From NCBI GenBank assembly GCA_029259715.1, contig JAJDEP010000004.1:17649-81648 (forward strand): a stretch of 64,000 nt of DNA, read 5' to 3'. A program made the translations under genes and the position numbers. Positions 9,948 through 32,805 of the stretch are shown here, in pieces; position 1 is the stretch's first letter, and each line of letters starts with the position of its first letter. The notes beneath the pieces were generated by a model that worked only from the letters and a program-made list of their open reading frames with translations, was not told the origin of the DNA and made no database searches. The DNA comes from Planctomycetota bacterium (GTDB lineage Bacteria > Planctomycetota > B15-G4).

Positions 9948-10070
9948 ATTGACCGGAATCGAACGGATCGAAACCCGTCCCGGGCGCGGTCCGGGTCACT
10001 GTCCGGGTCACCGTCGGGCACCGCTTGTCACCGCCGGGCGCGACGTTCAGCGCCTCAGCGCGCCCGTTAC

Positions 10071-11174
10071 TCAGCGCTGGAAGATGGGCAGGTAACCCAA
10101 GGGCACCTGCAGCGTCAGCGACACGATGGCCGTGCCATAGACGAAGCCGTACTCGCCGTTGCGGAACGCACCGTCGTCACCCTGCAGCCGGATCGACTCG
10201 TTGAGGAAGGCGCCCCACCAGCGCTTGAACACACTCCGCTCGCGGTGGTGCCAGAAGGTCTGCGCCGCGTACAGCGACCCGTACTGCAGGAAGTTCTCCC
10301 ACCCCCGCTCATTGAGGTAGGGGTCGTCCCGCTGCAAGGCGTCGAAGCCCATGTCCATGCGATCACCGCCGTAGTCGCCCAGGGCGTTGAGCGTCGACAA
10401 GGCGGCCGCCGTGAGCGCCCAGGTCTCCTTGTCGTCGTTGATCGCGTAGCGGAACTTGCCGGTGGCCGGGTTCTGCGAGCGCCACAGATAGGTCTGCGCC
10501 CGCTCGATGACGGCGCTGTCCACCTGGAAGCCCGCATCCCGCGCCGCCCGCAGGGACTGGATCATGCACACGGTGATCGACCCCTCGTGCAGGTCCATGA
10601 TGCGCGGTTCGTAGTACCAGCCCCCCACGTGTCCCTGGGCCGACTCGATCAGCGCCACGCCCCGGGCGATGGCGTCGTGCAGGCGCTTCTGTTGCCCCGG
10701 GTCGCTGGCGTACATGCCGTAGGCCTGGGTCAGCGCCAGCACGGCATAACCCTGCCCGTGCATGCGTGAGACCTCGTCCCGCTCGGCGTAGAAGTAGCCC
10801 TTGTCGTCGCAGCGGTCGATGAGCCAGTCGACGGCCCGGGTCAGCGACCGTCCGTAGCGACCACGCTCGGCGTCCGGCGCGTGCCCGGCCGCCATGAAGG
10901 ACAGCGCGGCCAGCGACGTCACCGCGATGGGCGCCGAGCGGCTCGCCTGGCTGCGCACGATGTCGAAGGAGCCGTCGGCGTTCTGATGCGACAGCAGGAA
11001 GCGGTGCGAGAGTTCGACCATGCGCCGCACCTGCAAGAGCTGCAGCGGGTCGTCGCGGCTCCCGAGGCCCTCGTCGTCCTGCGCTCCGGAGCCGGCCGCC
11101 AGCGCCACCGTGACCAGCACCGCCGTGATCGACGCAGCGACGAACGACACAGCGGCGAGGATCCGCCCGGTCAT
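10071..11174 (-). CDS. Secreted prenyltransferase/squalene-cyclase-repeat (alpha/alpha toroid) protein
   Basis: Signal peptide; QW-like repeats QNADGSF, QGHVGGW, QGDDGAF; ends YLPIFQR; no DXDD motif. Confidence 0.85.
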   Translation of the reverse strand: MTGRILAAVSFVAASITAVLVTVALAAGSGAQDDEGLGSRDDPLQLLQVRRMVELSHRFLLSHQNADGSFDIVRSQASRSAPIAVTSLAALSFMAAGHAPDAERGRYGRSLTRAVDWLIDRCDDKGYFYAERDEVSRMHGQGYAVLALTQAYGMYASDPGQQKRLHDAIARGVALIESAQGHVGGWYYEPRIMDLHEGSITVCMIQSLRAARDAGFQVDSAVIERAQTYLWRSQNPATGKFRYAINDDKETWALTAAALSTLNALGDYGGDRMDMGFDALQRDDPYLNERGWENFLQYGSLYAAQTFWHHRERSVFKRWWGAFLNESIRLQGDDGAFRNGEYGFVYGTAIVSLTLQVPLGYLPIFQR

Positions 11175-11827
11175 CTCTGCTCGAGCTTCCGCATGGCCGT
11201 GATGTACGCGTCGAGCCAACCGCGGTAGCGATCGGGGACATCATCGACGTGCAGGTTGTTGAGCTGCTCCTGGACCTTGGGCGGCAACAAACCCCAGCGC
11301 CCGTCGGTGTCCTCACGGGTGAAGGGCAACACCTCGTCCGGCGGCGGCGGCGCGCCCTCCTTCTGTTGGCTGTCGGCGGAGCCGTCCTGGGGCTGCTCGG
11401 CGCCCTGCTGCTCGCCTTGCGTGTCCTGCTGTTGCGGTCCCTCGCTGCCCTCGGGTTCCGGCGCCTTGCCCGAATCCTGCTGGCTCCCGTCGCTGGCCTG
11501 GGGCTGGCTGGGCTGCTGCTGCGGCTTGCCGCCCGATGAGGAACTCGGACTGCCGCCGCCACCCGAGCTGTTCGGCGGCGGATTCTGGAACGAGTACTCG
11601 AGCTTCTGGATCAGCGCCTCGATGTCGCGGATGGCATCGAGGTGCAACCGGCGTGCCCGCGCCACCTGGTCGGTGACGGCATCGACCTCGACGGCTTCGA
11701 GCAAGGCCTCGTCCACCTCGCCCAGCGTCTGGCGGATGCGTCGCGAGAGCGCCTCGATGTCCGCCTGGGCGCCCATGTCCTCGAACTGCAGGACACACGT
11801 GAGGAACATGGCGATGAGCGGGGTCAC
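11171..11827 (-). CDS. Hypothetical coiled-coil protein with Q/S/G/P-rich linker and DUF4175-like C-terminal motif
   Basis: 4-nt overlaps at both ends; WGLLPPK...VPDRYRGWLDAY terminus. Confidence 0.75.
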   Translation of the reverse strand: MTPLIAMFLTCVLQFEDMGAQADIEALSRRIRQTLGEVDEALLEAVEVDAVTDQVARARRLHLDAIRDIEALIQKLEYSFQNPPPNSSGGGGSPSSSSGGKPQQQPSQPQASDGSQQDSGKAPEPEGSEGPQQQDTQGEQQGAEQPQDGSADSQQKEGAPPPPDEVLPFTREDTDGRWGLLPPKVQEQLNNLHVDDVPDRYRGWLDAYITAMRKLEQR

Positions 11828-14577
11828 TTGGGCTCCTCCTGCGGCGGTGTGTCGATCGAAGGGTCGTCCACCGGCGGATCGTCGACGGGCGGGTCGTCGC
11901 GCGGGGCCACCAGGTCGTTCTCGGCTTCCGGACCGGTCGGCGTCTCGGGCACCAGCTCGCGGAACAGCTCGGACACCCGGGAGTGCTCGTAGGCCCAGCG
12001 TTCGATCAGCTCCCGGTCCACCTCCGAGTAGCTGTCCTCGTCGAAGATCTCGGGGTTGAGCCGCTCGAAGTTCTCGAGGCGCGCGAGCGCCGACTGCTCG
12101 AGGCGTTGGATCAGGTAGAGCTCGGCCACCTTCGGCACGAGCGGCGAGACGGTGTTCTGGTTGGGGTCGCTGGGCTGGCTCTCCTGCTCGCCCTGCTGCT
12201 GCGACATGAAGGCGTCGCGGCGACGCTCGTCCTCCTTCTCGAGCACGACGATGAGGTCGTCGATGCGTCGGACGATGTCGCTCTGCACCGACTGCACGAG
12301 AAAGTCGGTGCGCTCCTCGGCGAGCAGCTCGGAGGAGCGCCCCATGTCACGGGCCACCTGATCGAGGGCGTAGACGAAGCTGACGGCCCCGTCCTCGGCC
12401 AGGGCGGCGCGCACCGCGCTCGTCTGCTGGACGAGGTCGCTCTGCGTCGCCGAGAGACGGCTCACGGAGCGGCGTTGGCTGCGACCCAGGCGGCTGCCGT
12501 CCTCGCGCCCCTCCTCGACGCCGAGCGTCTCGACGTTGATGGCCTCCTGCGACAGACGCATCGCGCCCAACTCCTCGGCGATCTTGAACAGGACCTCTTC
12601 CTGGCGCAGCTGTTCGTAGCGGTCGCGGTCCTCGGCCAGTTCCTTCTGGGCTTGCTCGAGCTCCTCCGCCGCCTCCTCCTCGCGCGTCTGGGCTTCGCCG
12701 GACTCACCGCTCTGCAACGACTCGGACGCCTGGTCCATCGCTTCGGCAGCACGCTCCATGGCCGGACGGAACTCCTGGTCCGGCAGTTCCGCGAGGCGGT
12801 CCATGAGCTGGCGCAGCTGCGCCTGCAGCTCCTCCTGCTGAGCGGCCAACTGGTCGAGCTGCTCCTGTTGCACCTCCGGTTGCTCGCTTGCTTCGGCGGC
12901 GCCCGAGCGCTGCTGCAGCATCTGCATCAAGGCGGCCAGGTCGATCGCGGCCTGCTGCTGACTCTCGGCAGCCTGCTCGGTGTCGCCCCGCTCGAGGGCC
13001 GGGGTCAACTCCGACAGCTCACGCAGCAGGTCGCGGGTCCGGTTGAGCAGCTCCGGTCCCTCCTCGGGCTGCAAGGCTTCCAGTCGCTCGGCCCGGTCCT
13101 CCAGCTGCTCGGCTTCGTTGCCCGCATCCCGGGATGTGGCGAGCGCCATGGACTGCTCGCGGTTGCGGGCGGCCGTCGCGGCCCGTTCGGCCTCGTCGAG
13201 CTGGGCGCGGACCTGCTCGAGTGCCTCGGCCGCCTCCGTCATCGCCTCGCGCGCTTCGGCCACCTCCGCCGAGTCGTCGGGGAAGGCGGGGGACTCCTCA
13301 GGGGACTCGCCCGCAGGATTGCTCTCGCCCGACGGGCCCTGCGACCCCGAGGGGTTCGGCTCGCCCGCGGAACCCTGCTCGCCGGCAGGGGACTGTTCAC
13401 CCGAATCGCTCGGCTCTCCGGCCGCACCCTGCTCACCGGACGGGCTTTGCTCGCCGGATGCGCCGGACTCGCTGGACTCACCGGTCTCGCTCGAAGCGCT
13501 TGGCTCACTCGATTCGCCCTGCTCACCCGACTCGCCCTGTGCTCCCGAGTCGCTCGGCTCTCCCGACTCGCCGGTGGTGCTCGACGGCCCACCGTCTCGA
13601 GGCTCACCGGCCTCGCTCGGCTGGCCTGATTCGCTCGGCTCTCCGGACGATCCGCTCTCAGCGGTTTCGAGCGCCTCCCGGGCAGCGGCCATGCGTTCGG
13701 CGGCCCGCGTCGCGGACTCGGCGGCCCGGGAACGCGCCGCCTCGGTGGCCTGGGCCAGCTCCCCGCGCCCGGCTTCCAACGGCGTCTCCAAGCGCTCGCG
13801 CAACATCTCGAGTTGCGCCTGGAGCAGCCCCTGGGCATCGGCATCGGGTGTGGTCTCGGCCGCCAGCGCGCGCTGTTGCCGCGCGAGCATGTCGGCCAGG
13901 CTCGCCTCGCCCAGCGCGCTCTCCACGGCCTCCAGCGTCTGCAGGGACGACTCCGCCGACTCGAGCTGCGCCTGCACTTCCTGTGCCAGCTCGAGCGCCT
14001 CGCTCAGGAGTTCGTCAGGCTGGTCGGTGAGCGCGCGCGTCTCGGACAGCAGGCGTCGCTGGCTCTCCGCCAGGAACCCGAGCTCGACCGCACCCTGGCG
14101 CGCGAGGGCGGACTGGTCCTCGAGGTCCTCGACATCCCGCCGATCGCGCAGCACGGAGTAGATGCCCTCGATGGACACCAGCAAGCGGTCCTGCAGCTCG
14201 ATGGTGGAGAGCTTCTTGTCCTCGAGGCTGCGCTCGACCTCCTTGACCAGCGGCAGCAACTCTTCGGAGTCGAAGCGATCGATGGCCTCGCGCAGGAGCG
14301 TCGCGTTGCGCGTACGCCCCTCGTCCTCGTAGCGGCTGGCGAGGCGCTCCATCTTCTCGCGCAGGGCCGGCAGGCGGCTCGAGACCCGCGACTGATCACG
14401 GCGGACCCGGGTGAACTCCGATTCGTCGTCAGGTTCCTGGGCCGCCGCCGACAGGGTCAGCATCGAAAGGGTCAGGCCCATGAGGGCGAAGCGCAGCACA
14501 GCTCCGGGCCGGATCATGGCGGACAACACGGTGAGACCGGCGAAACGCGAGCGACCATTCGGCGTCAACCTGGTCAT
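11824..14577 (-). CDS. Large exported coiled-coil protein (DUF4175-like) with a collagen-like insert
   Basis: Signal-peptide-like N-terminus ending SAAA-Q, long E/Q/A/R/L heptad regions, ATGA overlap with the upstream gene. Confidence 0.8.
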   Translation of the reverse strand: MTRLTPNGRSRFAGLTVLSAMIRPGAVLRFALMGLTLSMLTLSAAAQEPDDESEFTRVRRDQSRVSSRLPALREKMERLASRYEDEGRTRNATLLREAIDRFDSEELLPLVKEVERSLEDKKLSTIELQDRLLVSIEGIYSVLRDRRDVEDLEDQSALARQGAVELGFLAESQRRLLSETRALTDQPDELLSEALELAQEVQAQLESAESSLQTLEAVESALGEASLADMLARQQRALAAETTPDADAQGLLQAQLEMLRERLETPLEAGRGELAQATEAARSRAAESATRAAERMAAAREALETAESGSSGEPSESGQPSEAGEPRDGGPSSTTGESGEPSDSGAQGESGEQGESSEPSASSETGESSESGASGEQSPSGEQGAAGEPSDSGEQSPAGEQGSAGEPNPSGSQGPSGESNPAGESPEESPAFPDDSAEVAEAREAMTEAAEALEQVRAQLDEAERAATAARNREQSMALATSRDAGNEAEQLEDRAERLEALQPEEGPELLNRTRDLLRELSELTPALERGDTEQAAESQQQAAIDLAALMQMLQQRSGAAEASEQPEVQQEQLDQLAAQQEELQAQLRQLMDRLAELPDQEFRPAMERAAEAMDQASESLQSGESGEAQTREEEAAEELEQAQKELAEDRDRYEQLRQEEVLFKIAEELGAMRLSQEAINVETLGVEEGREDGSRLGRSQRRSVSRLSATQSDLVQQTSAVRAALAEDGAVSFVYALDQVARDMGRSSELLAEERTDFLVQSVQSDIVRRIDDLIVVLEKEDERRRDAFMSQQQGEQESQPSDPNQNTVSPLVPKVAELYLIQRLEQSALARLENFERLNPEIFDEDSYSEVDRELIERWAYEHSRVSELFRELVPETPTGPEAENDLVAPRDDPPVDDPPVDDPSIDTPPQEEPK
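13303..13653 (-). repeat. 39 consecutive (G/S)-X-Y triplets (degenerate collagen-like repeat)
   Basis: GSS GEP SES GQP ... GES NPA GES; the first position is Gly in 25 and Ser in 11 of 39 triplets. Confidence 0.8.
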
Positions 14578-16817
14578 GGCGTCTCCCTCTCCTCCCTCAG
14601 GGCATCCTCGGTCCGCTTGCGCAGCAATTCCTGGTCCTCGATCAGGGTCTTCACCAGCGAGAGCACCTCCTGGTAGTCCTCCCACTCGTCCATACGTCCG
14701 AGCAGGCGATCGAGGAGAGCCTCGATTTCCTGCTGACCGGCAGCGACCTCGGTCAGCAGCTCGGGCGAGGGCTCCGCCCGGGCCCGCGAGAGCGTCTCGT
14801 GCACCTTCGGTGAGAGCGTCTCACTCAGTTCGAGAGCCAGCGCGAGCATGTCCAGCAGACGTCCGATCTGATCGAGGCGGCCGAAGCGGCCGCCGGCGTA
14901 GTCGTCACTCAGCCCTTGCCACACCCCGGGAGTGAAGGGCTCGTCGACCGGCTGGGTCGACCAGTCGTCCAGGCGGCGCTGCAGCACCGACTCGGCTCCG
15001 GGACCCGCATCGAGACGATTGAAGACCGTGTCGTCGACGATGCTGGCCAACTCCCGCGCCTCACGGCGTAGCCGGACCGTGACCTGGTTCTGCGCGACGA
15101 CGGCCGCCACGAGGTCCGGATCCCCGGATCCCGGCGCCACCTCGAGCATCGCCACCACCGACTCGCTCACCCGTTGCTGGCGCTCACGCACCGAGCTGTA
15201 GGCCTCCTTCAGGCGCAGCTGCCGGTCGGCGAGCAGCCGCTGGACCTCCGCGGTTTCCACGATGTCGAGACGTCGGCCATCGACGCGGGCCGATTGCGGG
15301 CCCCGGTCAGGCAGGCTGCGTCCATCGGTGGCCATCACCGTGTACGTCGTGGGGATCGTGCCCGGTTCCACCTGGTCCGACAGCGCCCTGCCATCGGAGA
15401 CGGCCGCGCCCAGTCGCCCCGCATCCGTCGCGAGGTCGAGCACCCAGCGGAAGTGACCGGCCTCGTTGGCGTCGGCCGTGAAGGCCGGTCCCTCGGAGTC
15501 GTCATCCCACAGCAGCGCGACGTGATCGACGCCGTGATCGTCGTCGGCCACCACCGCGAAGGGCACCACCGCTCGGGGCGTGACCTTCACCGTCGAGCGG
15601 GACGGCGCGAAGACGCGCAGGGTCGGAGGACGGTCGGGCTGGACGAGCAAGGCGTGATGAGCCGGGTCGGGAGTCTGGAGCCCGTGGGGCCCCGTCAACA
15701 CGACCGCCAGCGACCCCGAGGCGTCGGCGGTGAACGCACCATCGACCCGGGGACGGTCGCCGGAGGTGTCGATCTCCAACGCTTGTTGCGCACCGGTGCC
15801 GAGCATCCAGAGCTCGGCCCGGGTGACCTGACCGCGCACCTCGCCGCCCACGCCGACCCGCGTGCCTTCGGGCACGACGAGGCCTTCGGGGCCCACCTCG
15901 GTGTCGGGGCGGCCGAGATACTCCGGCGGCTGGAGGCGGAAGCGCGGGCTCTCGAGACGCGGCGGCTCCATGACGCTGAGCACCCGGCGATTCTCGTCAC
16001 CGCGATCGTCACCGCCCCGCACCGACAGGCTCTCGTCGCCCGCCTGCACGGCGAAGTGTCCGCGCCAGATGCCGTCGATGACCGTCATACCCAGGACCCG
16101 CTCACCGCGATCGGTGTCGATGACGATCTCGGCCCCCGCCGGATCGAGCCCGTCCACCGCGGCGCGCACGTCGATGACTCCCCCCCGCGCCACCACCAAC
16201 GAGCTGTCCTCGAGGACGACATGGGCGGGGCCGCGTTCGGGCAGCATGATGTGCAGGTGCGTGTCGCGAGGCCAGGGCACATCCTGCAACGTCCACCGCT
16301 GCACGAAGACGCCGAGCGCAGGGTCCGCCGTCGCCACGAGGACGGCGCACAGGGCGACCACGCCGAGGGCCGACCAGACCACCCGCAGCGTGGGCTTGTT
16401 CGTGAGCACGCCGAGCAGGTCGGTTCGCCGGCAGACGTCCTCGGCCTCGCTCGCCATGCGACCGGCCATCGATCCGTCGGCACCGCCGCCCAGCTGGAGC
16501 GCCGCGATGAGGCGGCCCTCGAACTCGGGCACCGCGCCCTCGACGATGCGCGCCGCGTCGAGGCGTTCGGGCCCGCGGGTCAGCGGCCCCCAGAGGCAGC
16601 GCCGGAACTCACGCACGAGCAGCACCAACAACAGCAGGAGCGCGGCGGCGCGCACGGCAAGGGGCAGGTGCAACCAGCGGTCGATCGTGTAGGCCAGGAT
16701 CGCCACGCCGCCGATGGCGGCGACCAGGCGGGCGACGCCGGCCGTCAAATAGAGCCGACGGATACGACCCGCGACCCGGTCGAGCCCGGAGACCACGGCG
16801 GTAGGCGTCGGGTTCAT
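14574..16817 (-). CDS. Membrane-anchored DUF4175-like protein (N-terminal TM helices, Ig-like repeats, coiled coil)
   Basis: About three TM segments, RLIAALQL, PPEYLG, PEGT, DRPPT, A-DDHGV; ATGA overlaps. Confidence 0.78.
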   Translation of the reverse strand: MNPTPTAVVSGLDRVAGRIRRLYLTAGVARLVAAIGGVAILAYTIDRWLHLPLAVRAAALLLLLVLLVREFRRCLWGPLTRGPERLDAARIVEGAVPEFEGRLIAALQLGGGADGSMAGRMASEAEDVCRRTDLLGVLTNKPTLRVVWSALGVVALCAVLVATADPALGVFVQRWTLQDVPWPRDTHLHIMLPERGPAHVVLEDSSLVVARGGVIDVRAAVDGLDPAGAEIVIDTDRGERVLGMTVIDGIWRGHFAVQAGDESLSVRGGDDRGDENRRVLSVMEPPRLESPRFRLQPPEYLGRPDTEVGPEGLVVPEGTRVGVGGEVRGQVTRAELWMLGTGAQQALEIDTSGDRPRVDGAFTADASGSLAVVLTGPHGLQTPDPAHHALLVQPDRPPTLRVFAPSRSTVKVTPRAVVPFAVVADDDHGVDHVALLWDDDSEGPAFTADANEAGHFRWVLDLATDAGRLGAAVSDGRALSDQVEPGTIPTTYTVMATDGRSLPDRGPQSARVDGRRLDIVETAEVQRLLADRQLRLKEAYSSVRERQQRVSESVVAMLEVAPGSGDPDLVAAVVAQNQVTVRLRREARELASIVDDTVFNRLDAGPGAESVLQRRLDDWSTQPVDEPFTPGVWQGLSDDYAGGRFGRLDQIGRLLDMLALALELSETLSPKVHETLSRARAEPSPELLTEVAAGQQEIEALLDRLLGRMDEWEDYQEVLSLVKTLIEDQELLRKRTEDALREERETP

Positions 16818-18031
16818 CGCTGGAAGATCGGCAGATAGCCGTAGGGGATGGAGAGGATCACGGTGCCTACGGCCGTCGAGAAGGCCTCACCGGGTCCGAT
16901 GCGGCAGGGCAATGAGCCGTCGGGTTGCTGCGACTTGAGCAGTTCGGCGCGGATGCGCGGGAAGTACCAGTCCCAGGCCTTGCCGCCGATCACGTACAGC
17001 GCCTGCGTCGCGTAGTAGTGGCCGTACCAGTAGAAGTAGTGGTGCCGGTAATACTTCCCCGACACCAGGTCGTAGTGCCGCTTGAGGAAGTCGATGCTGT
17101 CGTCGAGGTCGATGCCCTCGTTCGCGTCGCTGTAGAGCCCGGCGTTGTGGAGCGCCGCCAGGCCCGCGGCGGTGAGCGCGAAGGACGAGCGGGTGTGCTG
17201 CTCCGCCTGGTACTTGAACGAGCCGCGACCGAGCCGGTAGTAGTCGGCCCAGAGGTCGGGGCTGTGGTCGTCGCGGACGTAGCTGCGCGCGACATAGCCG
17301 GCCGCGCGGTCGATGGTGCTGCGCGGCACGCGGATGCCGACGTTGCGCGCTCCTCTCAGGGCGTTGAGCTGACACACCGTGATCGACATGTCCGACTCGA
17401 CGGCGAACGGCACGTAGCGCCAGCTGCCCTCGGCGTTCTGGCACGCGACGATGTGGTTGACGGCCCGCTGCAGCTCGTCCTTCACGTCGCGGCTGTTGGT
17501 CATGCCGTAGACCTCCGCCAGGAACAGCGTGGCGAAGGCGTGGCTGTACATGCGCGTGCCGTTGGCGGTGATGTAGCCCTGATCGTTGACGCGCGAGACC
17601 ACGTAGCGGGTCGCGTCGCCGATGACCTTGCCGTAGAGGCCCCGGTCGGGCAGGTGCCCCGCCGACAGGAAGGCGATGCCGGCCAGCGCCGTCACGCCCA
17701 CGTGAGGCACCTCGTTGGCCGTGACCTTGTAGTCCTGGTTGAGCTTGAAGCCGACGGCGGCGTCCCAGCTCCCATTGGGGTTCTGAGCCCGCGACAACCA
17801 CTCGAGGGCGGCGTTGACGGCGGCCACGCTCTCGGGGGTGATGTCGTCGTTGAAGGCCGGCGCGGGCCGCGGCGCCGCGGGGGCGCCGGGAAACAGCGTC
17901 GCCACGACGGCCGGCGGGCCGGCCGGCAGCGGGTCGGTCGGCGGGGGCGCGCTCAGTGCCGGATCGCCCGGCACGGCGCACAGCAACAGCAGCGGCAGGC
18001 ACAGCCAGGGAGCGCTCAGCATCGATGTCAT
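16814..18031 (-). CDS. Secreted prenyltransferase/squalene-cyclase-repeat (alpha/alpha toroid) protein
   Basis: Signal peptide; QNPNGSW, QNAEGSWRY, QQPDGS; MYSHAFATLFLAE; ends YLPIFQR. Confidence 0.88.
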   Translation of the reverse strand: MTSMLSAPWLCLPLLLLCAVPGDPALSAPPPTDPLPAGPPAVVATLFPGAPAAPRPAPAFNDDITPESVAAVNAALEWLSRAQNPNGSWDAAVGFKLNQDYKVTANEVPHVGVTALAGIAFLSAGHLPDRGLYGKVIGDATRYVVSRVNDQGYITANGTRMYSHAFATLFLAEVYGMTNSRDVKDELQRAVNHIVACQNAEGSWRYVPFAVESDMSITVCQLNALRGARNVGIRVPRSTIDRAAGYVARSYVRDDHSPDLWADYYRLGRGSFKYQAEQHTRSSFALTAAGLAALHNAGLYSDANEGIDLDDSIDFLKRHYDLVSGKYYRHHYFYWYGHYYATQALYVIGGKAWDWYFPRIRAELLKSQQPDGSLPCRIGPGEAFSTAVGTVILSIPYGYLPIFQR

Positions 18032-22362: not shown

Positions 22363-22367
22363 GGGGC

Positions 22368-24716
22368 CTACACCAGGTTGTTCCGCTTGCGCAGGATCCA
22401 CTCGCTGGCCAGGAGCAACACGAGCAGGCCCAGCTGCCAGGGTCCCGACCACAACTCTTCGCGCTCGGGCTCGTCGAGCGGGCGCTCGCGCACCGGGTCG
22501 TCGAGGTCGTCGAGCAGATCGCTCACCCCGTCGAGCCGCACGTAGCGACCGCCCGTGCGGGCCGTCACGGTGCGCAACAACGCCTCGTCGAGCACCGGGT
22601 CGTCCTGCTCCGCCGAAGGCACCGTCACGTTGATCACCCGCGGCGACTTGGGCTCGTTGGCGGGGTCGTCCGGGTCCTCGAGCCAGAGGCGATAGGGTCC
22701 GGCCTCGTCGGCCACCAACGATCCCGAGAACACGCCCGGCTCCTCGCCGGGCAGCCGCAACTCGTCACGGCGACCGTCGGGATGCACCACGACGACGGGG
22801 AACTCGTCCGCCGTCAGCGGATCGAGGGTCTTGGGATCGGAGACCCGCGCCGTGACCAGCACACGCTCTCCGATGTCGTACCCGGAGCGATCCGTCGAGA
22901 GGTCGAAGCCGTAGTCGGAGCGGCGCAAGCGATTGAGCGCGAGGAAGCGCACGAGTCCGCGCCAGAAGGGCTCGCGATAGGTCTCGCCGTGGAAGAAGCG
23001 CCAGCGCCACGTCTCGTCGGTGCCGAGGAAGGCCGTGCGCCCCTGCGGGTGGTACATGGTCGCGAGCAGCGGGTGCGGCCCATGGGCGTTGCTGCTGCGC
23101 GGATGGACGAGCAGCACGTCAGCCGTCGTGCGCGCCTTGAAGACCGGGTAGTACCAGGTCAGCGGCGCCAGGCCGCCTTCCTCGCTCCACAGCTCCTCGT
23201 TGCGCTCGGCGTCGTTGTGCAGGCTCACGATCTCGTGCGGATCGCGGGGCCGCGTCAACACCGGCCGGAAGGCGTCACCAGGCAGGACCATGTTCCCCTT
23301 TTCGGTCTCCAGGTCGCCCAGCAGCACCGGCAACAGATCCTCGATGGGCGTACCCACGTATTCCCGCGGGGAATAGAGGTTTCCGGCCTGCATCAGGAAT
23401 CCGCCGCCGGCCTCCACGAAGGCCTTGATGTGCTCGAGGGTGGCCTCGTTGTCGGGCCCGAGCCGTGCATGGTGCGGGTCGACGTCTCCGAAGATCACCA
23501 CGTGGTACTCGAGCAGCGCGTCGAGGGTCGGCGGGAAGCGCGTGAGCGCCGGGACGCCGCTGGTCGACTCCTGGATGAACTCGTCGTCGGCCGACAACAG
23601 CAGGCACTGCACCTCCATGTTGCCGGCGCGAAGCAGCGAGTTCTTCAGGAAGCGGTACTCGTAGCGCGGGTAGCCGTCGACGTAGAGCACCTTGATGCGA
23701 CCGGGCTCGACGCGCAGCAGGCGGCGCTCGGCGTTGTTGGCCGTGTCGCGCTCGCCCGACAGCGGGGTGAGCGTCACGGTCAGGTCGAGGTCGCCCTCCC
23801 TGTCGGGCACGAAGCCCACGCGCACGACCTGCTCGGTGATGCCCTCGTCGTCCGCCAGGGTGAAGGCCTGGCGCGAGAGCTCGCGGCCGCCGTCGGTCTC
23901 GCGCACGACGACGTCGGTGTAGGCGCCGCCGAAGCCCCGCGCGGCGACGGCCACCTCCAACGTGACCGTGTCGCCGGCGAGCGCGACCTCCGGCGCGGTG
24001 ATGGCGCCGATGCGCAGGTCGGCCGGCACGTCGGGATCACCGACCCCCACCGCGTTGACGGGGATGCCCCGGGCGATGAGCGGGCCCAGCGCGGCGGCGA
24101 CGTCCCGACCGGCGTTGGCGCGTCCGTCGCTGACCAGCACCACCTGCGACACGTCCCGGCCGCGGGTCTCGGCGCCGAGAGCGGCCAGGGCATCGCCCAG
24201 ACGGGTCGAGCCGTCCTGGGCCACCAGGTCGGACAGCCCCCCGACCGCGTGGAGCGAGTCACCGAAGGCGAAGGTGAGCACCTCGTACTTCTCGCGCCAC
24301 CTGTCGACGGGAGCGCGCAGCGCGGAGCGCACCACATCGATGCGGGGCGACGACGCCGGCAGCGACAGGTCTTCGGCCAGGTCGCCGATGTCGCGTTCAC
24401 GCATGGAGGCCGAGTCGTCGACGAGCAGCACGCCCACCGGCCGCTCGATGCGCACCCGCTGCTCGAGGCGCACCGGGCGCATGAGCGCCAGCGCGACGAG
24501 CACGAAGACGAGGGCGCGCGCGGCGGCCATGGGCCAGCGACCCCGGCCGTCGATGGGCTCGCGGCGGTAGATCCAGCGCACCGCCAGGAGGATGCTCGGC
24601 GCGAGCACGAGCACCAGCACCCACACCGGCGGCACGGCGAGCCACTCGATGCGGCTGGTGGTGACGACGTCCGCGAGGGCCGCGGGCGGTGTGGGCAGCA
24701 ACGTCGATATGTTCAT
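22368..24716 (-). CDS. Membrane protein with vWA, Ig-like and class I glutamine-amidotransferase-like domains
   Basis: Two N-terminal TMs, LVDDSASM and VSDG MIDAS, KVLYVDGYPRYEYRFL, ETWRWR, C-terminal TM ending EWILRKR. Confidence 0.87.
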   Translation of the reverse strand: MNISTLLPTPPAALADVVTTSRIEWLAVPPVWVLVLVLAPSILLAVRWIYRREPIDGRGRWPMAAARALVFVLVALALMRPVRLEQRVRIERPVGVLLVDDSASMRERDIGDLAEDLSLPASSPRIDVVRSALRAPVDRWREKYEVLTFAFGDSLHAVGGLSDLVAQDGSTRLGDALAALGAETRGRDVSQVVLVSDGRANAGRDVAAALGPLIARGIPVNAVGVGDPDVPADLRIGAITAPEVALAGDTVTLEVAVAARGFGGAYTDVVVRETDGGRELSRQAFTLADDEGITEQVVRVGFVPDREGDLDLTVTLTPLSGERDTANNAERRLLRVEPGRIKVLYVDGYPRYEYRFLKNSLLRAGNMEVQCLLLSADDEFIQESTSGVPALTRFPPTLDALLEYHVVIFGDVDPHHARLGPDNEATLEHIKAFVEAGGGFLMQAGNLYSPREYVGTPIEDLLPVLLGDLETEKGNMVLPGDAFRPVLTRPRDPHEIVSLHNDAERNEELWSEEGGLAPLTWYYPVFKARTTADVLLVHPRSSNAHGPHPLLATMYHPQGRTAFLGTDETWRWRFFHGETYREPFWRGLVRFLALNRLRRSDYGFDLSTDRSGYDIGERVLVTARVSDPKTLDPLTADEFPVVVVHPDGRRDELRLPGEEPGVFSGSLVADEAGPYRLWLEDPDDPANEPKSPRVINVTVPSAEQDDPVLDEALLRTVTARTGGRYVRLDGVSDLLDDLDDPVRERPLDEPEREELWSGPWQLGLLVLLLASEWILRKRNNLV

Positions 24717-26914
24717 CGCCCCTTCCCCATCCAGCGCGCGAGCAACGACTCGGAGACCAGCAACACCAGCAGAGTCCACAGCAAGGCGATCGCCAGGCCG
24801 CCGTCGCCCGCCTCGCGCCCCAGGTCGGCGTCCTCGTCGTCGGCCTCACCGATGACGAAGTCGATGCCGGTCAGCAGCGGGTCGAGGGCGCCGACGTCGA
24901 TGCGATCGAGGTCGCCTTCGCGGGCCTCCGGCAGCGCTGCCAGGGCGAGGGTCTGGCGACCCTGGGCGGTGTCGATGTCGAGGTCGTAGGCGCCCGCTTC
25001 CACCAACGGCGTGGCGTCGAGGGACAGCAGGCTGCGCGAGCCCGCGCGCTCGTATTCCGGCCGCGCGATCTCGTGCATGGCGCCCGACGGCAGGGTCAGC
25101 TGCACCCGCTGCGGCACGCCCTCCACGGTGAGCGAGGGGCTCTGCCCCACCGGCACGTTGGTGGCCGCCGGATCAGGGGCGGTGAGGTCGGAGAGCAGTT
25201 CGTGGATCAGCGGCACCCAGGTCGCCGGGAAGCGCGGCAGCAACGACCACGAGTCGTCGGCGCTGGTGGCCACCAGCACGATGCGGCCGCGCTCGAGCGC
25301 GCCCTCCACGATGGCCGGCGTGGTCTTGCCCAGGGCGCTGGCAAAGGACGCGAGCACCTCGGCGCCCTCGTCGGGAATCAACTCGCGCCACGCGAGCACG
25401 GGGACCTGCAGCAGCACGGCGAGTCGCGGATCCCCGAACAAGGCCAGCGGACGCGGCGCCGGCTCGGACAGCACGAGGGTCACGTAGTCCTCGCCGCCCC
25501 GGCCGCCGGGATCGCCCTGCAGGGCGCCGATGCGCGCCGGAATGAGGCCGCGTGCGTGCAGGCTCTCGTTGTAGAGAGCGGGCTCCACCTCCGAACCGAG
25601 GAACCACAGCAACGGTGTGCCCGAGCGGGCGGCCTCGACGAGCGCGTCGGCGGCGGCCTCGGTCATGCCGCCCACGTTGGTCAGCGCGATGGCGTCGAAG
25701 CCGGCGAGATCGGAGGCGCTCTGCTCGAACACCGACAGCGGGCGCACCTCGGTGCGGAAGCGCACGCCCGCCGTGAGATTCCCGGGATCGAGGGCCAGGG
25801 CCAGGAACCCGCTCCCGCTCTCGAGCGGGTCACCGCCGGCCGGGAGGCCGTCGACGATGAGCACGCTCACGGCGGGACGCACGTCGAGGGCGAGGGAGCG
25901 CTTGTCGTCGAACGGCAGGTCGTCGCCCTCGAGCGCGAACGAGATGTGGTGCGCACCGGGCGAGTCGATGCGCAGGCGCATGGTCACGGGCACCGGCCGG
26001 TCGGGCGGCACCTCGAGGGACACGCGCTGACGCAGCTCACCGTCGAGGTAGAAGCCGCCCTCGACAGCCATGCGCGCCGACGCGCCGTGGTTGCGGATCA
26101 CGGCGGTGAAGCCCAGGGGCTCGCCCGCCAGGGCCAGCGGCTGATCCGCGCTCAACGACTCGACGCCCAGGTTGACGGGCGTGCGCAGGGCCTCGTCGTC
26201 GCCGAAGGGCACGAGGCGCATGCGCCCGTTGCCGCGGTCGAGGATGGTGGCGAGCAGCTCCCCGAACGACGCGCTCAGACTGCCCCAGGTGAGCGTCTGC
26301 ATGTCGGTGAAGACTTCGAGGTCGATGCGTCCGGGGCGCAACGGGCGCACGCGCTCGGCCACGAAGCGCACCGCGGCCACGACGTCGGCCACGCCACCCG
26401 GCGGGGGCAGGTCCTCCTCGAGGGCCTGCAGCGCCACGGAGGGCGGCGAACCGATGGGCGCCGCGAGGGTCGTGGCACTGCCCATGATCACGACGGTCAC
26501 GCCGTCGCCGCGCTCGTCCGAGAGCCGGCGGATGCGCGCGCGCGCCGCGTCGAGCACGCGGTCGTCCAGCGACGCGCCGGGCGTCGTCTGACGGCCCATG
26601 CTCCCCGAGCGGTCGATCAGCAGCACGATGTCCCGGGGCCCCGAGCTCACCAGCGCCAGCGGGTTGTCGGAGGTGACGAAGGGCAGGGCCATGGCGAGTG
26701 CGGCCACCAACACCAGCAGGCACCGCAACAGGAGCAGCAGCAGCGACTCGAGCCGCAGTCGCTTGCGCCGCTCCTCGAAGGCCTGCCGCAGGAAGCGGAT
26801 CGCCGCGAAGTCGCGCACGACGAAGCGCCGCCGGTTGAGGATGTGGATCACGATCGGCACCGCCACCAACAGCGCACCCCACATCATCAACGGTGCGCCG
26901 AAGGCGGGGATCAT
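24713..26914 (-). CDS. BatA-domain/vWA membrane protein
   Basis: PIVIHILNRRR...FAAIRFL...LLLLLRCL (BatA N-terminus), IDRSGSM MIDAS, DDLPFDD, C-terminal TM. Confidence 0.9.
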   Translation of the reverse strand: MIPAFGAPLMMWGALLVAVPIVIHILNRRRFVVRDFAAIRFLRQAFEERRKRLRLESLLLLLLRCLLVLVAALAMALPFVTSDNPLALVSSGPRDIVLLIDRSGSMGRQTTPGASLDDRVLDAARARIRRLSDERGDGVTVVIMGSATTLAAPIGSPPSVALQALEEDLPPPGGVADVVAAVRFVAERVRPLRPGRIDLEVFTDMQTLTWGSLSASFGELLATILDRGNGRMRLVPFGDDEALRTPVNLGVESLSADQPLALAGEPLGFTAVIRNHGASARMAVEGGFYLDGELRQRVSLEVPPDRPVPVTMRLRIDSPGAHHISFALEGDDLPFDDKRSLALDVRPAVSVLIVDGLPAGGDPLESGSGFLALALDPGNLTAGVRFRTEVRPLSVFEQSASDLAGFDAIALTNVGGMTEAAADALVEAARSGTPLLWFLGSEVEPALYNESLHARGLIPARIGALQGDPGGRGGEDYVTLVLSEPAPRPLALFGDPRLAVLLQVPVLAWRELIPDEGAEVLASFASALGKTTPAIVEGALERGRIVLVATSADDSWSLLPRFPATWVPLIHELLSDLTAPDPAATNVPVGQSPSLTVEGVPQRVQLTLPSGAMHEIARPEYERAGSRSLLSLDATPLVEAGAYDLDIDTAQGRQTLALAALPEAREGDLDRIDVGALDPLLTGIDFVIGEADDEDADLGREAGDGGLAIALLWTLLVLLVSESLLARWMGKGR

Positions 26915-27855
26915 CGCCGCTGCCCACGCCGCGCCATGCGACTGCCCAGGAAGGCGGACAGGCTGTACTGCAGCGGTGTGCCGGTGTCGAGCAGGCAGTA
27001 GTCGATGTTGCGGCCGTGGCACAGCCGGCGGATGTCCGCACGCCAGCGCTCGACCACGCCGAGGTAGCTGGTGCGCAGGGCCGCGGCATCCACCAGCAGG
27101 CGCTCCTCGGTCTCCATGCCCTCGAAGCGCGTCAGGCTGTCGAAGGGGAACTCCAGCTCATCGGGATGCATGACGTGCAACACGATGCTGTCGTGCCCGC
27201 GCGTGCACAGCCGGTCGAGTCCGCGGGCCACCGTATCGAGGTCGCCGAACAGGTCCGACACGAGCACGACGATGCCCGGCCGGGCAATGCGGTCGGACAA
27301 GCGGCCCAGCACCGACTCAAAGTCGGTCTCGCCCTCGGGCTCGCGCCCGGCCAGCGAGGTCAGGATGGGCACCATGTGCCCCTGGCTCGTGGAGGCCTGC
27401 AGCACGCGGTCGAGCTTCTCGTCGAACAACGCCATGGCGGCGCCGTCGCGGTCGCGCAAGACCAGATGGGCCAGGCTCGCGGCGATCTGGCAGGCGTAGT
27501 CGTACTTGCTGACCCCGTCGCCCTTGTCCGCGCCGTAACCCATCGAGCCGCTGGCGTCGACGATCATCGTTGCTTCGAGGTTGGTCTCCTCCTCGTAGCG
27601 CTTGATGGCCAGCCGGTCGTTGCGCGCATAGGCGCGCCAGTCGAGGTGGCGCAGGTCGTCACCCTGCACGTAGGGGCGTCGGTCGACGAACTCGACGGAC
27701 ACGCCGTTGTGCGGGCTGCGGTGGCGCCCGGCGAGGAAGCCGTCCACGGTCTTGGCCGCCACCAGCGACAGGTGCTGGACGCGTTCGGCGACCCGTGGGT
27801 CGAGCTCGACCCGCCGCGGCCGCGACGGTGAGCCGGATGAAGACGAGGAGGCCAA
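26911..27855 (-). CDS. DUF58 domain (vWA-like) protein
   Basis: GRHRSPHNGVSVEF, RPYVQGDDLRHLDW, YEEETN, DASGSM. Start uncertain (TTG 27855; the ORF extends to 27900). Confidence 0.92.
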   Translation of the reverse strand: MASSSSSGSPSRPRRVELDPRVAERVQHLSLVAAKTVDGFLAGRHRSPHNGVSVEFVDRRPYVQGDDLRHLDWRAYARNDRLAIKRYEEETNLEATMIVDASGSMGYGADKGDGVSKYDYACQIAASLAHLVLRDRDGAAMALFDEKLDRVLQASTSQGHMVPILTSLAGREPEGETDFESVLGRLSDRIARPGIVVLVSDLFGDLDTVARGLDRLCTRGHDSIVLHVMHPDELEFPFDSLTRFEGMETEERLLVDAAALRTSYLGVVERWRADIRRLCHGRNIDYCLLDTGTPLQYSLSAFLGSRMARRGQRR

Positions 27856-27856
27856 C

Positions 27857-28909
<1,053 letters not shown>

Positions 28910-28979
28910 CGTTGTCCTCTTTCTCTACTGTCTCTGCGGTGAAAGGCGTCTCGGCGAGCGAGCGAGGGCTCGATTCAGC

Positions 28980-31031
28980 CTAGGGGCGCTGCTCCCAACA
29001 CTCCACTTTCATTTGGCGCATGCCGGTCGGGGAGAGCGCGATGAGCCCGCCTCGAACGGCATGGACGGCCACGACGGGCTCGGACGCCGCCGGCCGGCTC
29101 AAGAGCACCGGGTCGGCGGCCAGATCGAGCACACTGTACGCCCGGACGCCCGCCGACGTGGGCACGAACACATGGCCGTCCAGTCCACCTGTGAGCAGGG
29201 GCCGCGTGGGCAACGGCTGGCGCAGGGTCCCGGTCACGTCGACCCGCTCGCCGGGCGGGAGCGCCGGGCTGGCGGCGAGCTGGCGACCGTCGGGTCCGAT
29301 CAGCACCAGGCGGAAGACGCCGTTGCGCAATTCGGTGAGCAGGATCGACGGCGAAGCCCGTTCCCACGGGTCGGGCAGCAGGCCCACGACATGCCTCCGC
29401 CACATGCGCTCGATGGGGTCGTCGAGGATCACGTGGCCGGCCACCCCCAACTCCCGGGAGAGGACATAGAGGTAGCGGGAGTCCGAGGGCGCCACGACGA
29501 TCCGGTCGTCCCAGACCCGCACGGGCTCGTGGTCCCATCCGCCGGTGTCCACGAGGTAGGCGTGGTCGTAGGTGTCGGGATCGAGGGGGAACAGCCGGTC
29601 GTAGAGGAAGGTGAAGCGGGGCCGCCCGGTGAAGGCGTCGACGGCAGCCACCGCGCCGAAGCCCGTGCAGGCGTAGAGGATGCCGTCCTGCTCGGCCACG
29701 GCGGCCTCCCGGGCCCGTTTGTCGAGGTTCCACCAGTCGGAGGTCGCCTGACGGCTGGCGAAGCGCTCCACCGCGGCCCCGCGCACCAGGGGCGTCTCGA
29801 ACAGGCGCTCCCCCGTCTCCAGCGAGGCGCACACCAACGAGACCTCGGTGGTGAGCCCGCTGCGGAACAGCAGGGCGAACACCCGCCCGCCGCGCACCAG
29901 CGGCGGCCCGAAGGCGCTGCTCGAGTTCGTAGCGGACGCCCACGGCTCCTCGTCGCCGCGCAGCACCCAGGCCACCTCCTCGGCGCCCCCTGCGAGATCC
30001 ACCGCGTCGAGGTCGACCGCAGCGAGGTGGGCGTCGCGAGGATGATGGGCCCGCGGCTCGGGCTCGTTGCCGGGGATCACGTTGAGCGGTACGACGAGCC
30101 GGTCGCCACGACGGGCCAGGGCCATACGACGCGGCTGGGGCAGCCCGGCCGCGCGGAGGCCGATGCGCAGCGACGGCAGCGGCCAGGGCCGGTCGGTGAG
30201 CGTGGTCTCGACCCAGCCCATGCGGCCATCGCCGAGGTCCGCCCGTCGCGATCGACCCGTCGGTCCGGTGTCGACGACCGGGTCACCGCGCGAGACACCG
30301 AACAAGCCGATGCCGCGCAGGATCAAGAGCTCGTCGTCGCGCCCCTCGGTGACCAGGGGCCAGCTGTCGGACGACCACGAGTGCCAGCTCTCGAAGGAGA
30401 AGCGCCACTCCAGCCGGCGGGGATCGAGAACGGGGTCCCCGCCTTCACCGGGGCGACGCTCGGCGGCCGCCCGGGCGAGCGCCGCGGCGCCGGTCAGGTC
30501 GCCGGCCCGGCCGGCGAGGGCCTCGGCCGCCCACCACTCGCCCCGCTCGAAATAAAGTCGCGCCGCCGCCAGGGCGCCGACGCGGGTGGCCGTCAGGCTC
30601 AGGGGCCCGGCGGCCGCTTCCAACAAGGCGTCGAGGTCCCGGTCGCGCCGGGCCAGATCCACGCGCTGCCCCGCCTCCGCCTCGATCCGCTGCGCCACCA
30701 CGCCGGTGGGATCCAGGAGAGCCAGGTGCAGGGCCCGATCGAGCACCGGCACATGGGTCCTCGGCCCGAACGGCACGAGATCGGTCGCGGGCGAGGCGCG
30801 CAGGTCGCGCACCACCGTCATCACGGCGTCGGCATCGCCCAGGGCGAGGCCCTCTCGGAGCTGATTCAGCGACCGCCGCGCCTCGGCTCCGCCCTCGAGG
30901 GGCAACGTCGACCCGTTGTGGTAGTCGCTGCCCTCGGGCACGAGGAACTGGGCGGACGACGGGGACGCGCCGAGCGCCGCGAGCAGCAACATCCAACCGG
31001 CGACGACGAGCGCGGACCCGCGTGGCCTCAA
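28980..31031 (-). CDS. Exported beta-propeller (PQQ-like repeat) protein
   Basis: Signal peptide (SSA-Q); ASLETGERLF and AVDAFTGRPRF blades; TTGA overlap with the upstream gene. Alternative ATG at 30992. Confidence 0.75.
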   Translation of the reverse strand: MRPRGSALVVAGWMLLLAALGASPSSAQFLVPEGSDYHNGSTLPLEGGAEARRSLNQLREGLALGDADAVMTVVRDLRASPATDLVPFGPRTHVPVLDRALHLALLDPTGVVAQRIEAEAGQRVDLARRDRDLDALLEAAAGPLSLTATRVGALAAARLYFERGEWWAAEALAGRAGDLTGAAALARAAAERRPGEGGDPVLDPRRLEWRFSFESWHSWSSDSWPLVTEGRDDELLILRGIGLFGVSRGDPVVDTGPTGRSRRADLGDGRMGWVETTLTDRPWPLPSLRIGLRAAGLPQPRRMALARRGDRLVVPLNVIPGNEPEPRAHHPRDAHLAAVDLDAVDLAGGAEEVAWVLRGDEEPWASATNSSSAFGPPLVRGGRVFALLFRSGLTTEVSLVCASLETGERLFETPLVRGAAVERFASRQATSDWWNLDKRAREAAVAEQDGILYACTGFGAVAAVDAFTGRPRFTFLYDRLFPLDPDTYDHAYLVDTGGWDHEPVRVWDDRIVVAPSDSRYLYVLSRELGVAGHVILDDPIERMWRRHVVGLLPDPWERASPSILLTELRNGVFRLVLIGPDGRQLAASPALPPGERVDVTGTLRQPLPTRPLLTGGLDGHVFVPTSAGVRAYSVLDLAADPVLLSRPAASEPVVAVHAVRGGLIALSPTGMRQMKVECWEQRP

Positions 31032-31354
31032 CGGCCGCCCGGCTGGGCCTCCTCGCCGTCGTCCTGATCCGGCGTGATCACGATGGGACCGGGGATCGCC
31101 GGCGAGAGTCGTTCGAGCTCGGCGACGCGCACGCGCAGCAAGGGATCGTGCTGGATCGCCTCGGCGTAGGATTCGAGTCGCGAACTCTCCTGGCGCCGAG
31201 CCTGCACGTGGGCTTCCTTCTCCAGGAGAGCCGATCGGACTCGCTCCTTCTGTTCGATGGCGGGCAGCGTCGAGCGCACGAGAATCCAGGCCATCGCGGC
31301 CGTGAGCAGCAGCGCGAGACCGTAACGACCCAGCATCCCCGACCGTCCCTCCAT
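31028..31354 (-). CDS. FtsB/DivIC-like bitopic coiled-coil protein
   Basis: Short N-terminal tail, one TM, heptad coiled coil ending in a DP motif; sits directly downstream of eno, as in eno-ftsB synteny. Confidence 0.6.
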   Translation of the reverse strand: MEGRSGMLGRYGLALLLTAAMAWILVRSTLPAIEQKERVRSALLEKEAHVQARRQESSRLESYAEAIQHDPLLRVRVAELERLSPAIPGPIVITPDQDDGEEAQPGGR

Positions 31355-31500
31355 GACTCACGGACGTTACGCCAAGGGGAACGTGCCCCCGAAGGAAAAC
31401 CGGAGGCGCGGAGCGAAAACGGCGCCGGGCCTCGGCGTGTTAGGGAGAAGTCAGGTTCCGGTCGCGCGATCCGGGCCCGATCGGGTCGCGCGCCGACGGA

Positions 31501-32805
<1,305 letters not shown>

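Follow-up and report, generated by a model that had tools for sequence, protein, structure and literature searches.

A block of 12 minus-strand open reading frames, here called g1 to g12, occupies positions 10071-31354 of a 64,000-nucleotide stretch from a Planctomycetota bacterium (contig JAJDEP010000004.1 of assembly GCA_029259715.1). This whole stretch is referred to as the window; its G+C content is about 70%, and the coordinates of the block are those of the open reading frame list of the window. The block encodes a MoxR AAA+ ATPase, a DUF58 protein, two large membrane proteins of the vWA type, secreted alpha/alpha toroids and propeller-type proteins, and a further group of membrane and secreted proteins (Table 1). 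Neighboring genes overlap by 4 nt at their start and stop codons at 8 of the 11 junctions; a prior, sequence-only reading of this stretch had described 12 co-oriented genes with that many overlaps, and its coordinates and count are both correct. With moderate confidence, we read the block as one system that builds or maintains the cell envelope, as evidenced by these overlaps, by synteny in related genomes, by the presence of the block as a single copy in its own genome (from a search of that genome), by conserved metal ion-dependent adhesion site (MIDAS) motifs, and by flanks that are not syntenic.

Table 1. Genes of the block, with other features and loci discussed in the text (window coordinates unless a locus or genome handle is given)
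Feature	Position	Strand	Length (aa)	Junction with next gene	Remarks
Enolase	31501-32772				Directly upstream of the block; g1 lies directly downstream of it
g1	31028..31354	-	108	TTGA overlap	N-terminal transmembrane helix and helical region; "DP" motif
g2	28980..31031	-	683	Spacer of ~70 nt	Predicted secreted; probable PQQ/BamB-like propeller; signal-peptide-like N-terminus
g3	27857..28909	-	350	Spacer of 1 nt	MoxR AAA+ ATPase, predicted cytoplasmic; AAA_3 and AAA_lid_2; no transmembrane segment
g4	26911..27855	-	314	ATGA overlap	DUF58, soluble vWA-like; DASGS MIDAS at residue 100
g5	24713..26914	-	733	ATGA overlap	BatA-type, predicted inner-membrane protein; DRSGS at residue 101
g6	22368..24716	-	782	Spacer of 5 nt	Second membrane vWA protein; DDSAS at residue 100
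g7	18028..22362	-	1444	ATGA overlap	Predicted secreted giant; PQQ/BamB-type propeller repeats; signal-peptide-like N-terminus
g8 (toroid 1)	16814..18031	-	405	ATGA overlap	Predicted secreted; terpene-cyclase superfamily; QW-type motifs; C-terminus ...YLPIFQR
g9	14574..16817	-	747	ATGA overlap	Predicted inner-membrane protein with three transmembrane segments; no family match of its own
g10	11824..14577	-	917	GTGA overlap	Predicted secreted, very acidic; long Gly/Glu/Ser/Pro low-complexity stretch; signal-peptide-like N-terminus
g11	11171..11827	-	218	ATGA overlap	Gln/Gly/Glu-rich; conserved C-terminal motif ...P.RYR.W..AY...
g12 (toroid 2)	10071..11174	-	367		Predicted secreted; ~31% identity to g8; C-terminus ...YLPIFQR; last gene of the syntenic block
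GACGAAGGAATTCGT	9892-9906 and 9934-9948				Present twice, with one mismatch in one of the copies
g1 orthologues	L003:833-1174, L004:1011-1331, L008:18418-18810, L012:18391-18777, L014:14489-14857, L024:5430-5741				Directly downstream of enolase
Further MoxR paralogues	G000:C13:772545-773483, C13:733641-734549				Same genome as the window, away from the block
Toroid 1 tandem duplications	G053:C62:58239-60497, G074:C20:6005-8265				5' of g9
Second module copy on plasmid pPL62-3	L051:1-10143				Planctomyces sp. SH-PL62

The core of the block is a four-gene module, g3 to g6. The g3 protein matches AAA_3 at 203.6 bits (1.2e-60; cut-off, 27) and AAA_lid_2 at 64.8 bits (6e-18; cut-off, 22.7). By the usual definitions of the Walker motifs, both Walker A (GVPGLAKT at residue 52) and Walker B (LLADE, continuing INR, at residue 116) are intact, and g3 is 62 to 80% identical to the MoxR proteins of related loci. 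Its neighbor g4, a DUF58 protein (PF01882; 148.1 bits, 2.8e-43; cut-off, 23.4), begins just past the MoxR stop codon, so the ATPase gene adjoins that of a vWA/MIDAS partner. The g5 protein carries a BatA N-domain (PF07584; 55.1 bits, 1e-14; cut-off, 25.9) and matches TIGR02226 (68.6 bits, 4e-19; cut-off, 23.05), with weak VWA_2 and Glyco_hydro_42M matches besides. Neither BatA model matches g6, which has weak VWA and GATase1_like matches and the same transmembrane layout as g5. The vWA matches of g5 and g6 are both sub-threshold. The DxSxS motif is kept in g4 at 37/37, in g5 at 66/66, and in g6 at 70/70 related loci, counting only loci whose alignment spans the motif site. The MoxR protein and three vWA-type proteins with intact motifs (DASGS, DRSGS, and DDSAS) in the sequence-only reading are therefore found as described, and the motifs are conserved in all aligned loci.

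Predicted topology places the products of the block on both sides of the inner membrane. Hydropathy analysis found no hydrophobic segment in g3 or g4, and these two proteins are probably cytoplasmic. The g5 protein runs from a first transmembrane segment through a basic loop and a second transmembrane segment to the vWA domain and a GATase1-like region, and it ends in a C-terminal transmembrane segment and basic tail. The positive-inside charge pattern suggests that the large, vWA-bearing part of g5 is periplasmic, in agreement with BB0173, a BatA/B-type protein of Borrelia for which three transmembrane segments, an inner-membrane location, and a periplasmic vWA domain were mapped experimentally (PMC5700661). 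In g6, two N-terminal transmembrane segments seen by hydropathy are followed by a GATase1-like region and, from the translation, a C-terminal hydrophobic anchor. Overall, g5, g6, and g9 would be inner-membrane proteins with large periplasmic parts, and their cytoplasmic share would be limited to basic loops and tails, all of them short, and a segment of about 77 amino acids in g9, while g2, g7, g8, g10, g11, and g12 would be exported. The sequence-only reading had proposed an ATPase coupled through membrane proteins to a periplasmic scaffold that assembles, modifies, or exports clients. The topology and signal-peptide patterns make it fair to describe the block as a cytoplasmic ATPase accompanied by membrane and periplasmic proteins, but coupling and the assembly, modification, or export of clients go beyond what these patterns show.

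The block is syntenic across many genomes, more than expected by chance. Seven close loci from Planctomycetota metagenome-assembled genomes keep the gene order as far as their contigs reach, and the genes that flank the block in the window (BlaR1-like downstream and S8-like beyond the enolase gene, eno) have no match in any related locus. Across 201 sampled genomes of the phylum, relatives of g9 are present in 167 and toroid 1 (E<=1e-40) in 169. Both were among the matches listed for 94 genomes. The distance between the two genes is at most 300 bp in 50 of these and at most 6 kb in another 17 (67/94); contig breaks, paralogues, or matches beyond those listed may account for the remaining 27. 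In 10 distant genomes, a biased choice made for long contigs and full-length g9 matches, the series MoxR-DUF58-BatA-vWA-propeller-toroid 1-g9-g10 is kept in all 10, toroid 2 in 7, g11 in 5, and an upstream eno in 5.

A scan with a toroid alignment extended this picture to the best 80 loci, nearly all titled Planctomycetota and leaning toward relatives of the window. The counts are based on the 79 new loci (that is, without L002) and, for each gene, on those with enough flanking sequence. Downstream of toroid 1, g9 is found at 76/76 loci, toroid 2 at 51/51, g10 at 51/58, and g11 at 31/53; because g11 is small and divergent, its misses may reflect sensitivity. Upstream, g7 stands between g6 and toroid 1 at 68/73 loci, and beyond it are g6 (58/64), g5 (57/60), and g4 (47/57). 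The order loosens in six deeper genomes, where it is partly rearranged. Linkage of the toroid to the core outlasts this rearrangement in three of them: G156 (toroid-MoxR-DUF58-BatA-…-vWA-g9), G190 (propeller-MoxR-DUF58-BatA-vWA-g9-…-toroid), and G001 (the core, then the toroid 4 kb later). The expectation that similar clusters would occur in other planctomycetes was thus well founded, as this neighborhood survey found the components co-conserved across much of the phylum.

Two loci deserve separate mention. One of the 80 toroid loci, L105, is titled as a metagenome-assembled genome of the gammaproteobacterium Glaciecola sp. and has full planctomycete-type synteny; it is probably a mis-binned contig. 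In addition, the 81-kb plasmid pPL62-3 of Planctomyces sp. SH-PL62 contains a second copy of the module that lacks a toroid, with BatA and VWA genes followed by g9-like and g10-like genes. Its DUF58 gene is annotated in two pieces, and similarity to MoxR likewise falls in two pieces from the start of the record.

Outside the phylum, the sample was tiny (three alphaproteobacterial records plus Gemmatirosa), and propeller or toroid additions in other phyla are consequently not excludable. The records from Rhizobium leguminosarum, Shinella, and Methylobacterium hold only MoxR, DUF58, a DUF4159 protein, and a homologue of g6, which is an arrangement of the RL3499-RL3502 type. No counterpart of g2 or of g7 to g12 was seen at these core loci, and the core spans about 7 kb, compared with about 21 kb for the planctomycete block. 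The order of g3 to g6 is that of RL3499-RL3502, namely, MoxR, DUF58, a large BatA/DUF4159 membrane protein, and a g6-like membrane protein. Identity between R. leguminosarum and the block is 48% for MoxR, 28% for DUF58, and 23% for the g6 homologue by tblastn. In contrast, g5 has no tblastn match to the Rhizobium DUF4159 protein at 1e-3 and a weak match in Shinella. Matches of g6 at the Rhizobium, Shinella, Methylobacterium, and Gemmatirosa loci identify it as homologous to the fourth gene of the alphaproteobacterial operon. In Gemmatirosa, MoxR-DUF58-BatA is followed by a single DUF4175-like open frame, with a vWA gene resembling g6 set apart about 4.6 kb 5' of MoxR. A 2011 study by Vanderlinde et al. 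reportedly treats RL3499-RL3502 as a "broadly conserved operon" with an envelope phenotype. Transposon sequencing of R. leguminosarum reports RL3499 and RL3500 mutants as growth impaired on TY medium (PMC5118466).

Several observations weigh against reading the block as one envelope system. First, the alphaproteobacterial core operates with none of the additional parts, and the canonical DUF4175 gene of Shinella lies 1.2 Mb from its core. Second, among the deeper genomes, only the propeller and toroid are present in G176, and the 30 kb examined in G070 and G041 contained no component other than the toroid. Third, four genomes that are 90 to 100% complete (G032, G062, G039, and G115, of families f33 and f40) have no match to g9 or toroid 1 with these queries, toroid 1 was found in none of the listed genomes of f33, and G087, G112, and G132 of that family have only weak g9 matches (E ~1e-4); these results suggest that some Planctomycetota lineages lack the system. 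Fourth, deletion of all bat genes in Leptospira biflexa is reported to leave growth, morphology, and oxidative-stress resistance unaffected (PMC3557215), which indicates that the core module can be dispensable in the laboratory. Finally, the topology of g6 is ambiguous, with basic residues on both sides of its second transmembrane segment.

The first two of these observations also speak for an alternative in which two independent modules are neighbors, an ordinary four-gene MoxR-DUF58-BatA-vWA unit and a separate periplasmic set of propeller, toroid, and DUF4175-like proteins that draws no energy from MoxR. Inserts of 2 to 6 kb between toroid 1 and g9 in 16 genomes fit such a division as well. 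Nevertheless, 4-nt overlaps lie on either side of the supposed boundary, at g5/g6 and g7/g8, and the g6/g7 junction that would form it is only a 5-nt spacer. The steady position of g7 between g6 and toroid 1, the persistence of the toroid near the core in the reshuffled G156, G190, and G001 genomes, and the DUF4175-like gene directly 3' of the core in both Gemmatirosa and pPL62-3 argue in the same direction. We regard two independent modules as possible at a low probability.

The membrane and secreted proteins g9, g10, and g11 had been grouped in the sequence-only reading as three DUF4175-like coiled-coil proteins, which is overstated. At E<=0.01, none of the three window proteins matches DUF4175 (PF13779; cut-off, 27.3 bits); g9 has no match even at E<=1, and a six-frame search of the genome returned none. 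Part of the claim holds at the level of families. Six of the 32 members of the g9 family match PF13779, the best at 2.1e-11, and L041 scores 30.2 bits; 2 of the 10 distant g9 orthologues match positions ~188-431 of the profile, one above the cut-off. Among g10 orthologues, 5/13 match positions ~634-803, again with one above the cut-off (L044, 35.0 bits), while g11 orthologues gave 0/9. Alignment of profiles with hhalign relates the g9 family to the canonical 866-aa DUF4175 protein of Shinella over the Ig-like region (91.8%, E 7e-7), and the g10 alignment does so weakly (9%). In the ESM Atlas, the neighbors of g9 also include a DUF4175 cluster from Verrucomicrobiota (about 1169 aa; rank 21; score, 0.94).

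On these results, the two proteins g9 and g10 look like the halves of a split DUF4175. The g9 protein appears related to the first half, that is, the N-terminal and central part, and g10 is probably the C-terminal half, although this second assignment is less certain. Both the g9 family and canonical DUF4175 have transmembrane helices near the N-terminus, and they differ in that two genes share the sequence here, compared with one open frame in Gemmatirosa and Shinella. In place of a coiled coil, an AlphaFold 2 (AF2) model of g9 built on a 32-sequence alignment (mean predicted local distance difference test score [pLDDT], 91.3) displays a transmembrane hairpin, the conserved, helical ~77-aa segment (residues 69 to 145) on the cytoplasmic side, a third transmembrane segment, three or four immunoglobulin (Ig)-like domains (residues 186 to 520), and a helical bundle (residues 522 to 745). 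Foldseek matched this model to generic tandem-Ig proteins only. Collagen and Scl adhesin labels on g10 are artefacts of low-complexity matches. The g11 protein has no Pfam or NCBIfam match, and its short N-terminus is signal-like, more clearly so in orthologues.

The first gene of the block invites a bolder interpretation. Adjacency of eno and ftsB is common in other bacteria, and a small open reading frame with a transmembrane helix, a coiled coil, and a "DP" motif lies 3' of eno in 6 of the 7 related loci that hold eno. To call g1 FtsB-like, as had been done from sequence, is right about the single transmembrane helix, the coiled coil, and the position downstream of eno, but it overstates the case, as the window protein has no DivIC (PF04977) match and a DivIC search of the genome likewise gave no support for FtsB. 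Three of seven g1 orthologues match DivIC at E 0.0031 to 0.13, all below the 28.9-bit cut-off; hhalign against Escherichia coli FtsB gives 2.9%, and a g1 profile retrieves only generic coiled coils from the PDB. Two papers state that ftsB has been lost in all planctomycetes. The architecture and position of g1 are thus FtsB/DivIC-like, homology is neither demonstrated nor excluded, and the protein cannot be called FtsB.

Under this interpretation, the block would be an ATP-controlled machine that spans the periplasm and is particular to Planctomycetota. A cryptic FtsB-like gene, located downstream of eno as in the ancestral arrangement, would stand at its head, and the machine would act in FtsZ-independent division or envelope morphogenesis. 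MoxR and DUF58 would send work across the inner membrane by way of the BatA-type and DUF4175-type proteins, in a manner loosely comparable to that of FtsEX, and the work would reach a strut of Ig domains, helical bundles, toroids, and propellers. The hints are the recurrent small gene between eno and the cluster and the DUF4175 Pfam label that the g9 family has in common with the essential division protein AdvA, a link to the block by label only. We consider a role in division unlikely.

The resemblance of the core to the Bacteroides aerotolerance (Bat) operon raises another alternative, namely, a stress or aerotolerance system that supplies or manages reducing power or protects the envelope against oxidation or heat. 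As in the Bat operons, including BB0170-BB0176 of Borrelia and bat of Leptospira, MoxR comes first, followed by DUF58 and membrane vWA proteins with a BatA N-domain, and in Riemerella anatipestifer MoxR and batA are reported to affect the survival of heat and oxidative stress (PMC11834572). The PQQ-type (pyrroloquinoline quinone-type) repeats of g7 and g2 could be taken the same way. The Bat operon also comprises BatD and TPR and SH3 proteins, according to the component list in PMC5700661. In contrast, no BatD, TPR (BatC/BatE), or SH3 family was found among the 12 proteins by Pfam at E<=0.01, the block adds propellers, toroids, and a split DUF4175, and g5 and g6 are about twice the length of BB0173 and carry GATase1-like regions. 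The lack of an oxidative-stress phenotype in the L. biflexa deletion and the absence of a recognizable redox enzyme among the added parts further argue against this alternative.

Nor do the propellers help it, since PQQ_2 is described as a BamB-type scaffold and PQQ dehydrogenase models score far below their cut-offs on them. The claim of two beta-propellers holds firmly for g7, which matches PQQ_2 at 125.8 bits (2.7e-36) in five stretches, with BamB models sub-threshold, but g2 reaches 18.9 bits, below the PQQ_2 cut-off of 27.6, and is otherwise placed by its similarity to g7 orthologues. By sequence, g2 is a probable beta-propeller of the PQQ/BamB type that is paralogous to part of g7. Orthologues of g2 lie 5' of MoxR in L003-L007, and propeller-like matches occupy this position in G182, G053, G033, and G190, whereas none was seen there in G119 or G160. 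A stress or aerotolerance function for the block seems quite improbable.

The two secreted alpha/alpha toroids of the sequence-only reading are confirmed in g8 by a structure model and in g12 as its paralogue. Both have weak squalene-cyclase/prenyltransferase domain matches and signal-peptide-like N-termini. The AF2 model of g8 (pLDDT, 86.2) is an (alpha/alpha)6 barrel whose best matches are squalene-hopene cyclase (SHC; Z 26.4) and single-domain cyclase-like proteins (Z 24 to 26, root mean square deviation of ~3 Å over ~285 residues). Same-fold glycoside hydrolases come close behind the cyclases (Foldseek, VIA), such that the fold is common to SHC, GH76, MmpH, and AprG at Z 23 to 26. A profile of both toroids against the PDB retrieves SHC at 3.5e-19. 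With 8paj/8pak, MstE, AprG, and SHC, the toroids share the barrel and QW-type repeats; they differ in being secreted, in lacking the catalytic DxDD, in the ...YLPIFQR ending, and in being encoded in an envelope cluster. This ending is found on both toroid paralogues across the phylum and, within this genome, on g8 and g12 only. The "DVDDT" of SHC aligns with a toroid stretch that has no acid cluster, and the DLDD that g8 itself possesses is not conserved among orthologues. An acidic residue before a conserved "S-I-T-V" motif is present in both paralogues.

That the toroids are secreted enzymes (terpenoid cyclases or glycoside hydrolases/lyases) in a cluster for processing an envelope lipid or polysaccharide, with MoxR-vWA as a maturation chaperone, would suit the SHC profile match, the common fold, and this acidic residue, and it is very unlikely given the missing acid cluster, an identity of only 6 to 20% to any matched enzyme, and the absence of cyclase substrate-supply genes from the block. 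As a separate observation, toroid 1 is duplicated in tandem 5' of g9 in two distant genomes. A candidate propeller-toroid fusion (P0049; PQQ_2 plus toroid, 1182 aa) was rejected as an artefact of gene calling, since its internal Arg/Pro-rich stretch is a probable out-of-frame read-through and it has no real similarity to g7.

Two further classes of MoxR systems are useful for comparison. First, RavA-ViaA pairs a MoxR ATPase with a soluble vWA/MIDAS partner that is suggested to target the ATPase to membrane complexes (PMC3893208, PMC10585395). An AAA+ MoxR gene adjoins that of a soluble vWA/MIDAS partner in both cases. In contrast, g3 scores 203.6 bits against AAA_3 and 22.9 bits against the RavA model, whose cut-off is 681 bits; the block encodes three proteins with a MIDAS, of which two are probably periplasmic; and no respiratory-complex client is evident. 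Second, MoxR-vWA ternary conflict systems are described as mobile, often multicopy, and equipped with rapidly displaced effectors and a third component of the VMAP/iSTAND type (Kaur et al. 2020, PMC7159879). They also unite MoxR, vWA, and beta-propeller genes in one neighborhood, and the bpMoxR model scores 45.5 bits on the block. We rejected this assignment, as the block is single copy, stable across the phylum, and membrane bound or periplasmic, has no effector-type Pfam domains, and fits AAA_3 far better. No description of the full architecture, and no function assigned to it, was found in the literature searched. The main text of an essential-gene study in Planctopirus limnophila (PMC10632474) does not name MoxR, BatA, vWA, or DUF58, and its supplementary tables may list orthologues.

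Returning to the single envelope system, we propose that the block is a Planctomycetota-specific expansion of the widespread and poorly understood MoxR-DUF58-BatA-vWA module of the Bat or RL3499-RL3502 type. Its likely role is in building or maintaining an envelope structure, whether for integrity or morphogenesis, and not in metabolism. Published phenotypes of the core module are inconsistent and implicate either the envelope or stress.

A physical coupling of the components could work as follows, although we grade any single step much lower than the reading as a whole. By analogy with other MoxR/vWA pairs, the MIDAS of DUF58 would dock a MoxR hexamer on the cytoplasmic handles of the membrane proteins, which may be the BatA loops, the C-terminal tails, and the conserved g9 segment. 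ATP hydrolysis would then drive the assembly or remodeling of a periplasmic scaffold. The two periplasmic vWA domains may bind acidic partners via their metal sites, with the very acidic g10 and g11 as candidates. An elongated strut could be made up of g10 and two parts of g9, its Ig stalk and its helical bundle, and the DxDD-less toroids and the propellers may act as binding platforms, not as class II cyclases. A complex prediction for g9 (residues 165 to 747) with toroid 1 (residues 62 to 405), run without controls, scored 0.00 and was counted neither way.

These findings bear on a class of operons whose mechanism is poorly settled. MoxR-DUF58-BatA-vWA operons are widespread, and the phenotype reports for them conflict, ranging from aerotolerance, stress, and envelope integrity to none at all. 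In Planctomycetota, whose envelope is unusual and which lack FtsZ, the block joins this core to defined and conserved partners in the membrane and periplasm, and it thereby offers concrete candidate clients, and a topology, for a cytoplasmic AAA+ ATPase that acts on periplasmic proteins. DUF4175 gains a genomic partner and can be described structurally as a transmembrane hairpin, an Ig stalk, and a helical bundle, and a specific family of secreted terpene-cyclase-fold proteins is defined by its ...LPIFQR ending. If the cluster proves to matter for growth or shape in a tractable planctomycete, then it would provide an entry to planctomycete envelope biology.

Finally, a few minor features of the genome can be recorded. 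Scans for sigma-70 promoters and for terminators in the regions 9000-12000 and 27500-33500 were uninformative at 70% GC. Two further MoxR paralogues, 43 to 45% identical, are encoded away from the block, and a DUF58-like gene adjoins one of them. Between g12 and the BlaR1/M56-like gene, the sequence GACGAAGGAATTCGT occurs twice, where 0 copies are expected by chance (100 shuffles); the pair is possibly a BlaI-type operator.

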